Source: Escherichia coli
Lineage (GTDB): Bacteria > Pseudomonadota > Gammaproteobacteria > Enterobacterales > Enterobacteriaceae
DNA length: 64,000 bases
Direction: 5' to 3' (one strand)
Assembly (NCBI RefSeq): GCF_016903815.1
Contig: NZ_CP069973.1
Positions 62,447 through 64,000 of this stretch are shown here, piece by piece. The position numbers and the translations under genes are program-made. Within the stretch, counting starts at the first letter, position 1. Every line of letters starts with the position of its first letter. The notes beneath the pieces were generated by a model, which saw nothing but the letters and a program-made list of their open reading frames with translations, did no database searches and had not been told where the DNA came from.

Positions 62447-63238
62447 ATGAGCGAGAAATTAAAGATAGTCTATCGCCCATTACAAGAATTGTCACCGTAT
62501 GCGCACAACGCCAGGACGCACAGTACTGAGCAGGTGGCACAACTGGTAGAAAGTATTAAGCAATTCGGCTGGACTAATCCGGTGCTGATTGACGAAAAGG
62601 GCGAAATTATTGCGGGTCACGGTCGTGTTATGGCGGCTGAAATGCTCAAAATGGATTCTGTTCCGGTCATTGTTCTGTCTGGCCTGACGGATGAGCAGAA
62701 AAAGGCGTACCGCCTGGCAGATAATCGCCTGCCGATGAATGCTGGCTGGGATGAAGATCTGTTGCGGATGGAGCTGTCGGACCTAATCAATGCTGATTTT
62801 GATGTCTCCCTGACAGGCTTCATCCCGACAGAAATTGATGAACTGTTGACGGATGTTTTGCCCGGTACAGGAAATGAGGAGGAGCCGTATACGACGAAAA
62901 TTGATACGCCTGTTTATGAGCCGTCGGGCGGTAAACCGGATATCAGTGAACTGTACGACGATACGAAAACTCAGGAGCTGATCAGCCGGATACGTTCGGC
63001 GTCCCTTGAGCCTGATATTGAGAAATTCCTCCTGTGTGCGGCAGAACGTCACACGGTGTTTAATTTCAGCAGAATTGCGGACTATTACGCTCACGCCCCC
63101 TCTGAAATTCAGTGTTTTTTCGAGGAGTCGGCGCTGGTGATCATTGATTATCAGCAGGCTATTGAAAATGGATTTGTCCGGATGACGCAGCGCATGGTGG
63201 AGATCATGCATGGTGGTGAGGAGGAGGAATATGCGTGA
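62447..63238 (+). CDS. ynaK: ParB/Srx N-terminal-domain protein (full-length form of K-12 ynaK)
   Basis: 263 aa. The ParB-N motif region is LSPYAHNARTHSTEQVAQLVESIKQFGWTNPVLIDEKGEIIAGHGRVMAAEMLKMDSVPVIVL..LADN. The C-terminus is acidic and non-methylase. Confidence 0.8.
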   Translation: MSEKLKIVYRPLQELSPYAHNARTHSTEQVAQLVESIKQFGWTNPVLIDEKGEIIAGHGRVMAAEMLKMDSVPVIVLSGLTDEQKKAYRLADNRLPMNAGWDEDLLRMELSDLINADFDVSLTGFIPTEIDELLTDVLPGTGNEEEPYTTKIDTPVYEPSGGKPDISELYDDTKTQELISRIRSASLEPDIEKFLLCAAERHTVFNFSRIADYYAHAPSEIQCFFEESALVIIDYQQAIENGFVRMTQRMVEIMHGGEEEEYA

Positions 63239-64000
63239 TGATTTTTGCGCCTTTATTCTGACTCACGGGCGACCGGACAAAGTTCTGACTTACCGGACGT
63301 TGCGTCGTGCTGGCTATACCGGGAAAATTTTTATCGTTGTTGATGATGAAGATAAGACACGGCATCAGTACATGGCTGAATTTGGGGAACAGGTGCTGGT
63401 GTTTTCCAAAGCCGATATCGCCAGTCGTTTTGACGAAGCCGATAATTTCTGTGACCGCCGCTCAATTTTTTACGCCCGTAATGCCTGTTTCGACCTGGCA
63501 AAACTGGTCGGGTGTAAATACTTCATTCAGCTCGATGATGATTATCACGAGTTCCAGTTTCGGGTGGATCGCAACTATGACCAGGCCTATTTTCCGATAA
63601 GGAAACTGGATGCGATCCTTTCTGAAATGCTGGCGTACTACGAATCAATACCTGCTCTTTCCATCGCTATGTCGCAGGGCGGGGATTTTCTTGGTGACAA
63701 TGGCGGCCATGCTTCGTGGGTGAAACGCAAGGCAATGAACAGCTTTATCTGTTCGGTTGAACGACCGTTCTCATTCATGGGGCGCATTAACGAGGATGTG
63801 AATACGTACACGAATCTCGGTCGCTGTGGTGAATTGTTTATGACGATCGGTGCTGTCCAGTTAGGGCAGAAACAGACGCAGAAAAACAGCGGCGGAATGA
63901 CCGAGCTGTATCTGGATTCCGGAACCTACGTTAAAAGTTTTTACTCCGTCATGTATGCGCCGTCGTGCGTAAAAATCTCACTGATGGGTGCCAGCCATAA
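63231..64000 (+). CDS. GT-A-like (DxD) putative glycosyltransferase, 3' end beyond the window (ydaY position)
   Basis: Not in the ORF track because it is open-ended. Hand translation of frame 3 from ATG 63231 (overlapping the ParB-like stop, with a GAGGAGGA SD) shows no stop to base 64000: MRDDFCAFILTHGRPDKVLTYRTLRRAGYTGKIFIVVDDEDK...KYFIQLDDDYHEF... Confidence 0.7.
   Translation, partial: MRDDFCAFILTHGRPDKVLTYRTLRRAGYTGKIFIVVDDEDKTRHQYMAEFGEQVLVFSKADIASRFDEADNFCDRRSIFYARNACFDLAKLVGCKYFIQLDDDYHEFQFRVDRNYDQAYFPIRKLDAILSEMLAYYESIPALSIAMSQGGDFLGDNGGHASWVKRKAMNSFICSVERPFSFMGRINEDVNTYTNLGRCGELFMTIGAVQLGQKQTQKNSGGMTELYLDSGTYVKSFYSVMYAPSCVKISLMGASH

Follow-up and report, generated by a model that had tools for sequence, protein, structure and literature searches.

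A ParB-like protein and a TAGT-family glycosyltransferase encoded by overlapping genes in Escherichia coli Rac-like prophages: a candidate partner-assisted DNA glycosylation cassette

Glycosylation of phage DNA is so far known solely in cases in which a hydroxymethyl-pyrimidine has first been installed. Phage GT-A enzymes that were shown to glycosylate 5-hydroxymethylcytosine (5hmC) in DNA carry an R...DDD...ED(Y/F) signature and align with the trypanosome base-J glucosyltransferase (JGT) (Pyle et al., 10.1101/2023.12.21.572611). About 65% of the phage glycosyltransferase (GT) contigs mined in the same study had no hydroxymethylase-type neighbour and were set aside unexplained. In a second described system, the phage thymine dioxygenase 5mYOX176 requires for its activity on double-stranded DNA a cognate protein, ParB176, which has no DNA-binding domain (O'Toole et al. 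2026, PMC13229309). Here we analyze a gene pair, ORF1 and ORF2, at the end of a 64,000-nucleotide stretch of E. coli DNA (contig NZ_CP069973.1; referred to below as the window), which encodes a ParB-like protein and a GT of the TET-associated glycosyltransferase (TAGT) family. The element carrying it is a full-length Rac-like prophage, integrated at ttcA.

We propose, with a probability of roughly 45%, that the pair is a late-expressed, partner-assisted module of post-replicative DNA glycosylation, which acts as the DNA is readied for packaging. That ORF1 and ORF2 make up one functional cassette opening the packaging/morphogenesis operon of an intact Rac-like prophage is put forward with the same caution, at somewhat less than even odds.

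The overlapping genes and their products

The features of the pair, all on the + strand, are as follows.

62447-63238, +: ORF1, ATG start, 263 amino acids (aa), ParB-like
62447-62731, +: ORF1 residues 1-95, predicted ParB/Srx N-terminal NTP-binding fold (PF02195; ParB-type matches in the PDB; pLDDT 75-93)
62732-62851, +: ORF1 residues 96-135, acidic helical extension (WDxxLLxxEL...GF) common to ParB-methyltransferase fusions
62852-62953, +: ORF1 residues 136-169, acidic linker with predicted disorder, bearing the motif Y148-T-x-K-x-x-x-P155-x-Y157-x-P159-S-G
62954-63238, +: ORF1 residues 170-263 and stop codon, highly conserved helical C-terminal domain (FLxxAAxRHxVFxFxxIADYYA...ESALVIID)
63218-63238, +: coupling junction, with a Shine-Dalgarno-like run, the ATG of ORF2 and the TGA of ORF1
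63231-64000, +: ORF2, open at the window end (256 of 310 codons), TAGT-family GT-A glycosyltransferase
63270-63272, 63534-63542, 63792-63797 and 63891-63905, +: ORF2 key residues R14, D102-D104, E188-D189 and GGMTE (221-225)

The two genes have 8 nt in common, ATGCGTGA, in which the ATG of ORF2 (63231-63233) precedes the TGA of ORF1 (63236-63238), and a Shine-Dalgarno-like sequence, GAGGAGGAGGA, lies just 5' of this ATG at 63218-63228. The overlap of the first stop with the second start, noted in a preliminary description of the window, was therefore seen as described. The second gene, incomplete in the window, could be completed from genomes identical to it over 62300-64000, where it encodes 310 aa.

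ORF1 starts with the ParB/Srx N-domain that had been claimed for it. Residues 23-90 match Pfam ParB_N (PF02195) with 29.3 bits (cut-off 26.3, E 9e-7), and residues 1-250 match PHROG 620, 'ParB-like partition protein', with E 1e-90. The PDB sequence matches of this domain were Spo0J, ParB and Noc, and Foldseek returned ParB folds for it, namely ParB-CDP 6sdk, Noc, MxParB, PadC and KorB (6sdk, 7nfu, 7bnk and 6ryk at E 5e-6 to 2e-5). In Box II, GHGR (residues 57-60, nt 62615-62626) stands in place of the canonical GERR of ParB, with the Glu and the first Arg replaced and R60 kept, and D92-N93 at Box III (consensus ENxxR) is invariant. The similarity to DNA methyltransferases of phages is confined to this end of the protein: residues 10-144 match the N-terminal positions 13-151 of the 436-aa ParB-fused type II methyltransferase model PDLC03229 of PADLOC (E 1.5e-38), and residues 3-141 match PHROG 498, 'DNA methyltransferase' (E 9e-51). 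Searches of Pfam, PHROG, NCBIfam and PADLOC found no methyltransferase domain in ORF1, and methyltransferase-type models gave nothing past residue 144.

The AlphaFold2 (AF2) model of ORF1 shows helices at residues 103-134, disorder at 136-169 (pLDDT <50) and a helical C-terminal domain at 170-254. The net charge of residues 96-263 is about -25 (the isoelectric point, pI, of the whole protein is 4.5), and the protein was rightly said to end in an acidic region of about 160 aa without a methylase domain. The linker motif, which runs from Y148 to the final G at nt 62888-62929, is invariant in 24 enterobacterial homologues, and its YTxKxxxPxYEP part occurs also in Lactobacillus, Nocardia and Haloarcula phages and in stand-alone forms of the C-terminal domain. 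No Pfam, NCBIfam or PDB family covers the C-terminal domain.

ORF2 is, judging by its sequence and modelled structure, a soluble GT-A glycosyltransferase of the TAGT/JGT-like family. Its residues 8-222 align with positions 4-205 of the 205 positions of Pfam PF20691 (TAGT) with 120.5 bits (cut-off 27.5, E 1.2e-34). The same label is carried by 120 of the 120 homologues listed, the UniRef names of which are 'GREB1-related' or 'TAGT domain-containing', and PHROG 842, labelled beta-glucosyl-HMC-alpha-glucosyltransferase, matched with E 8e-98. Sequence and profile searches of the PDB with ORF2 gave nothing meaningful. The AF2 model (pLDDT 71, pTM 0.74) had Foldseek matches in the PDB that were all GT-A: SpsA (E 2e-4), followed by GpgS, glycogenin, GnT-I and COLGALT1, with SunS and ThuS also among them. 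Among the viral models of BFVD, it matched TAGT-domain proteins with E 5e-23 and TM 0.70-0.77.

The R...DDD...ED(Y/F) signature is present in ORF2 as R14, D102-D104 and E188-D189. Of these residues, E188 is conserved and the others are invariant, D102-D104 throughout 26 homologues. The segments from which a nucleotide-sugar transferase with a DxD motif had been proposed, FILTHGRPD (residues 8-16), VVDDED (36-41) and QLDDDY (100-105), are all there, and the proposal is borne out by the PF20691 match, the GT-A fold of the model and the invariant D102-D104. Pfam assigns a family to both proteins, ParB_N to ORF1 and TAGT to ORF2. Judged by its sequence, ORF2 is no packaging protein, and it has the GT-A fold, so neither of these two conditions named earlier as refuting was found. 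GTs of the ORF2 type are mildly basic in bacterial phages (pI 8.0-9.4), whereas the ORF1 partner is acidic. The E. coli ORF2 has a C-terminal extension of about 25 aa, which is absent from most homologues (285-290 aa).

A recurrent cassette in viruses of Bacteria and Archaea

The co-occurrence of the two genes in other elements, suggested earlier as a check, could be followed well beyond enterobacteria. A tblastn search of 50,697 phage records with ORF2 matched 38 of them; a locus scan with an enterobacterial ORF2 alignment found only near-identical E. coli prophages. Overlapping partner and GT genes, with a terminase gene after them, are found in Lactobacillus phage phi jlb1, in a Porphyromonas phage and in a metagenomic contig that has an HK97-type module. 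The overlapping pair lies directly after the cos site and before the terminase in L. delbrueckii phage c5, directly 5' of the large terminase (TerL) gene in Nocardia phage NTR1, where no separate small terminase (TerS) is annotated, and about 3 kb upstream of the large terminase gene in halovirus HHTV-2. A second metagenomic contig has the overlapping pair and no recognisable terminase within about 6 kb. The GTs are 39-48% identical to ORF2 (26% in the Porphyromonas phage), and the partners are 32-42% identical to ORF1 (25% in the Porphyromonas phage), motif and C-terminal domain included. Only a remote GT homologue (24% identical), in a T4-like Aeromonas phage, lacks the partner domain. It is firmly established that the overlapping cassette occurs in viruses of both Bacteria and Archaea, temperate as well as virulent. 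Since virulent phages carry it, the cassette serves the lytic cycle.

In E. coli genomes identical over 62300-64000, ORF2 is followed by a 69-aa gene, a gene for a 364-aa small terminase, the large terminase, portal and P22-type capsid genes. The 3' end of ORF2 overlaps the 69-aa ORF (region L001:13842-15149 of the intact prophage, just past the window end), the product of which aligns with the central part of a small-terminase family (PHROG 309, positions 157-218, E 1e-17). Together with the 364-aa annotated small terminase, it looks, from these matches, like a split or duplicated TerS arrangement. The terminases beside the cassette are of mutually unrelated types: Terminase_3, Terminase_6, TerL_ATPase and, in E. 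coli, a P22-like module. The cassette is tied to terminase genes across phyla, and the earlier statement that the pair points to DNA modification 'rather than packaging' goes too far.

The C-terminal domain of ORF1 was also followed by itself. Its profile found 3,929 proteins (90% clusters), many of which have only 130-155 aa and no ParB_N. An exhaustive search with the domain of ORF1 itself gave 1,186 clusters at 50% identity, in which the domain is always C-terminal and never fused to a GT. A census was made of 80 diverse IMG/VR loci retrieved via this domain, with naive ORF calling; 43 of the 80 come from one metagenome project. A TAGT ORF adjoins the gene for the domain in 80/80 loci, as a tandem TAGT pair in about 19 of them, and the domain is fused to ParB_N in 72/80. 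The estimated GT start lies 40 nt or less from the partner stop, mostly overlapping it, in 72 of 74 evaluable loci. The constant partner of TAGT is thus the C-terminal domain with the YTxKxxxPxYEP motif, and not ParB_N.

Clear stand-alone forms of the domain, of 133-139 aa, were found in two large phages. In Vibrio jumbo phage pv27, a 139-aa stand-alone domain is encoded directly 5' of the GT (E 4e-43). In a 123-kb gut-metagenome phage contig (L098, 7001-11631), the order is stand-alone domain, 597-aa CofD-like phosphotransferase, MobA/IspD-like nucleotidyltransferase, TAGT and TAGT, surrounded by DnaB, primase, PolA and RecA genes; this locus has the look of a hypermodification pathway of several steps. 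For P0257, the stand-alone assignment is less certain, as ParB_N is in frame in L099, a locus 97% identical to it. The corresponding segments are L095:6333-7000 and L099:7734-8465; the L099 ORF encodes 243 aa including ParB_N, while in L095 and at least nine similar contigs an upstream stop reduces the protein to 154 aa, and the roughly 670 nt before it contain no long ORF. The contrast between these sequences suggests that ParB_N has been lost or disrupted repeatedly.

The neighbouring ORFs of the 80 loci were clustered, and 142 cluster representatives were scanned. The most frequent neighbours were the following.

28/80 loci: radical S-adenosylmethionine (radical-SAM) protein, 320 aa, directly 3' of the GT (e.g., L128:9334-10296)
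26/80 loci: large terminase of the Terminase_3 type (other types form separate clusters)
25/80 loci: small terminase
19/80 loci: ArpU/DUF1492-like regulator
16/80 loci: RusA
15/80 loci: DnaC-like protein

The radical-SAM neighbour has a CxxxCxxC motif (CNNRCPYC) and C-terminal cysteines, and only generic similarity to MoaA, SPASM-type and viperin-type enzymes. It could provide an oxygen-independent way to prepare or elaborate an acceptor, or it could be a peptide maturase. One relative has genes for a C5-methylase and a dUTPase/DCD upstream of the pair, and a UDP-galactopyranose mutase is encoded in one census locus. Another metagenomic phage that carries the pair has a run of four GT2-family genes behind its major capsid gene (L092:17837-20316); they may serve virion glycosylation, as a separate sugar system in the same genome.

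Possible substrates of the glycosyltransferase

In the reading that we favour, ORF2 would transfer, in a metal-dependent reaction, a sugar from a nucleotide-sugar donor, and ORF1 would be its dedicated accessory subunit. The C-terminal domain and the linker motif of ORF1 would bind the GT, and the ParB fold would dimerise or clamp, keeping the GT on double-stranded phage DNA late in infection. The DNA would be glycosylated after replication, during or just before packaging, and the sugar may shield it from host nucleases and restriction. This DNA-modification and anti-restriction hypothesis, already raised in the preliminary description, is reasonable because the TAGT family includes proven DNA-base GTs, and because ParB-like proteins without a helix-turn-helix (HTH) activate DNA dioxygenases; what does not fit it is that no acceptor-forming enzyme is encoded. 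Tandem TAGTs, the locus with the CofD-like protein and the nucleotidyltransferase, the C5-methylase with dUTPase/DCD, and the UDP-galactopyranose mutase are consistent with nucleic-acid hypermodification in relatives. The idea that ParB-N itself is the DNA-targeting module did not hold: ORF1 has no HTH and is strongly acidic, its C-terminal domain is the conserved partner, and some phages have no ParB_N.

Several observations weigh against DNA glycosylation by the pair. A TET/JBP dioxygenase or a thymidylate-synthase-type hydroxymethylase was absent from the whole prophage, including its unannotated proteins, from what is annotated near the pair in six phage records, and from the families common to at least two of the 142 neighbour representatives, singletons not being fully excluded. 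The acceptor used by every characterised member of the TAGT family is therefore missing, and as no enzyme forming 5hmC or 5-hydroxymethyluracil (5hmU) is encoded, the glycosylation of DNA is something that we infer. Neither Pfam nor the AF2 model gives ORF1 an HTH or another DNA-binding domain, and its net charge is about -25. The Box II Arg is gone in the NTR1 (Nocardia) and Porphyromonas orthologues and ParB_N is missing in about 10% of the census loci, so clamp-type loading on DNA cannot be a universal mechanism. In the literature, we found no experiment on this ParB-GT clade, and none on DNA modification in c5, jlb1, NTR1 or HHTV-2. GT contigs without hydroxymethylase-type neighbours were judged less obviously DNA-modifying (Pyle et al., 10.1101/2023.12.21.572611), and a TAGT relative, GREB1, is reported to glycosylate a protein, as an O-GlcNAc transferase (PMC7968844).

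The cassette might also glycosylate DNA without a hydroxymethyl handle, the acceptor being a DNA end or a base that is either canonical or Dam/Dcm-methylated. We consider this unlikely. If true, it would be an unrecognised DNA-modification chemistry, present in E. coli Rac-like prophages and in viruses of at least four bacterial phyla and of haloarchaea, and the adjacent radical-SAM protein could replace TET/JBP without oxygen in relatives of largely metagenomic, probably often anaerobic, origin.

The main alternative, although an unlikely one, is that the GT acts on a protein: most attractively on the invariant Tyr or Thr residues of the YTxKxxxPxYEP motif of ORF1 itself, in a glycogenin- or glycocin-like manner, or else on the terminase, the portal or a virion protein. 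With its two Tyr and one Thr, its strict conservation and its predicted disorder, the motif would suit such a target, but it may equally be a docking peptide. The conserved unit is the C-terminal domain with the motif and the GT, ParB_N being optional, and no enzyme that would form a DNA acceptor accompanies it, both of which favour a protein substrate, as does the protein O-GlcNAc transferase activity reported for GREB1, which belongs to the same family. On the other hand, the N-module of ORF1 is that of DNA methyltransferases and DNA-dioxygenase activators, the closest experimentally characterised relatives of ORF2 work on DNA, and the replication-gene, C5-methylase and dUTPase contexts point to nucleic-acid chemistry. 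The peptide S-glycosyltransferases SunS and ThuS and the protein glycogenin are among the PDB fold matches of ORF2, though these are generic GT-A matches. The radical-SAM protein with extra C-terminal cysteines that follows the GT in 28/80 loci also speaks for a protein target; in that case, it would act in relatives as a second maturase on the motif segment.

Still less probable is a role of the pair as a packaging accessory, in which ORF1 would work with the terminase, for instance to recognise or organise DNA at pac or cos or as a ParB-type nuclease or nickase, and the GT would contribute indirectly, for instance by marking or capping DNA ends or regulating the terminase, without any purpose of modifying bases in general. 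The position of the cassette upstream of unrelated terminase types, after cos in c5 and before TerL in NTR1, would be explained in this way, as would the overlap of ORF2 with the fragment-like 69-aa TerS homologue. However, genes for post-replicative DNA modification, too, typically adjoin terminase genes (Aravind and co-workers, as quoted in PMC8256090), and in jumbo and other large phages the stand-alone domain and the TAGTs lie among replication genes, away from the terminase. Moreover, ORF1 has no recognisable nuclease motif or DNA-binding domain.

It is very improbable that the GT uses hydroxymethyl-pyrimidines supplied in trans, that is, the 5hmC, 5hmU or glucosyl-hmC of the DNA of other phages (as a weapon or a helper) or rare oxidised bases, and leaves the canonical DNA of its own phage alone. 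Every TAGT-type enzyme characterised so far depends on a hydroxymethyl or glucosyl-hydroxymethyl acceptor, and the label of PHROG 842 (beta-glucosyl-HMC-alpha-glucosyltransferase) and the distant homologue in the T4-like Aeromonas phage go in the same direction. Yet that homologue is only 24% identical and comes without the partner domain, the cassette belongs to a late operon, coupled to the phage's own terminase, in a halovirus and in virulent phages of Lactobacillus, and the PADLOC matches of both proteins amount to the ParB-methyltransferase N-terminal module alone. We rejected a defence system (no PADLOC defence match beyond this N-module), a partition ParB (no HTH, no ParA) and a GT for O-antigen or teichoic-acid conversion (soluble, in a late operon, and also in virulent phages).

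The Rac-like prophage, its K-12 remnant and related systems

The ORF1-ORF2 region recurs in E. coli. At least 80% of a 1.7-kb query covering it was found in 912 of 5,426 complete genomes, and partial copies were found in 677 more; intact Rac-like prophages with the pair occur in about 17% of the complete genomes. Upstream of ORF1 lie a Q-like antiterminator region, a holin/endolysin/spanin cassette and then trkG.

60834-62309: trkG, low-GC moron between the lysis cassette and the packaging genes (GC 0.34-0.42, compared with 0.47-0.50 in the flanks)
62396-62419, +: terminator-like hairpin with a T-rich tail (10-bp stem, 7 GC pairs), upstream boundary of the cassette

By its base composition and layout, trkG is a classic moron, a low-GC insert with its own terminator-like hairpin. 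The hairpin is placed 3' of trkG and 28 nt 5' of ORF1, and it would stand in the path of late read-through into the ORF1-ORF2 cassette. Another ORF, of 189 aa, lies at 58515-59084 between the Q-like region and the holin gene; its sequence is partly hydrophobic-looking and has no Pfam match. Lambdoid phages often carry morons at this position.

In several genomes, NZ_CP033884 among them, PGAP labels the intact 263-aa ORF1 a pseudogene of ynaK 'missing C-terminus' (L001:12148-12405, equal to window 62447-62704), although other genomes with identical DNA have it annotated as a normal coding sequence; ORF2 is a 'hypothetical protein' throughout. Apparently, the pseudogene call is modelled on the truncated K-12 protein. 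The present findings correct the PGAP annotation of both ORFs.

In K-12, YnaK (L011:4378-4641) has 87 aa, which correspond to ORF1 residues 1-85 and two junction residues. K-12 lacks the 11.56 kb of L001 12402-23961, containing the ORF1 tail, ORF2, the terminase and the head genes. The preliminary description was therefore right about ynaK, but not about ydaY, which it took for the remnant of the second gene: ORF2 is deleted, and YdaY is 98% identical to the product of a gene (L001:23954-24313) that the intact prophage carries between those for the tail tube and the tape measure, and had no BLASTP match to ORF2, so ydaY was rejected as an ORF2 remnant. That the pair has not been studied in K-12 agrees with our finding no study of it, except that the YnaK remnant was tested in one overexpression screen. 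In this screen, overexpressed YnaK (87 aa, ParB_N only) raised the minimum inhibitory concentrations of six unrelated antibiotics, and no mechanism was proposed (PMC12924614, 2026).

Both protein families, the association of ParB with phage DNA-modification genes and the ParB-dependent DNA dioxygenases (2026) are already known. Within the accessible literature, with Iyer et al. 2013 outside the comparison, the hydroxylase-less cassette of partner domain and TAGT appears to be new, and so do the obligate link of an unannotated partner domain to TAGT and the frequent radical-SAM companion. The cassette is a defined and widespread subset of the orphan GT contigs, the obligate partner domain of which forms about 1,200 clusters at 50% identity, and its presence in an inducible E. 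coli prophage makes the role of orphan phage GT-A enzymes directly open to experiment. It may extend the idea of ParB-like activators from dioxygenases to glycosyltransferases, and may reveal a new acceptor chemistry or show that phage TAGT-type enzymes also glycosylate proteins.

Among known systems, partition ParB of ParABS is the most distant. ORF1 shares its N-terminal ParB fold, but reaches only 38.1 bits against TIGR00180 (cut-off 58.45), over the N-domain alone, is acidic and has no HTH or parS-binding domain; no parA was found in the prophage. The ParB-N6/N4 DNA methyltransferase fusions (PHROG 498, PDLC03229) are homologous to the first 141-144 residues of ORF1, which differs from them in having no methyltransferase domain, a different C-terminal domain and a separate, coupled GT. 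Iyer et al. (2013, NAR 41:7635) are said to have described such fusions just upstream of terminase genes, and reportedly also defined TAGT there. As quoted in PMC8256090, they suggested that modification enzymes are directed by ParB during packaging.

The TAGT/JGT-like DNA GTs (the phage enzymes of Pyle et al., base-J glucosyltransferase, and GREB1 as a relative) resemble ORF2 in the GT-A fold, the signature, the phage origin and the length of 285-310 aa. They differ in that here no TET/JBP (5mYOX) or thymidylate-synthase-type gene is nearby and a dedicated partner domain is obligatory. GTs have been associated with the ParB-independent, and not the ParB-dependent, class of dioxygenases (PMC13229309). 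Unlike ParB176, ORF1 is paired with a GT and not with a dioxygenase, its C-terminal domain also stands alone in other phages, and its Box II is GHGR and not GERR. Nevertheless, the layout of ORF1 is that of ParB176. An NTP-binding ParB fold, the closest structures of which are CTPase ParBs, leads through a few helices and about 35-50 aa of disordered linker to a C-terminal domain; an HTH is absent, and the gene lies beside that of an enzyme of a DNA-modifying type.

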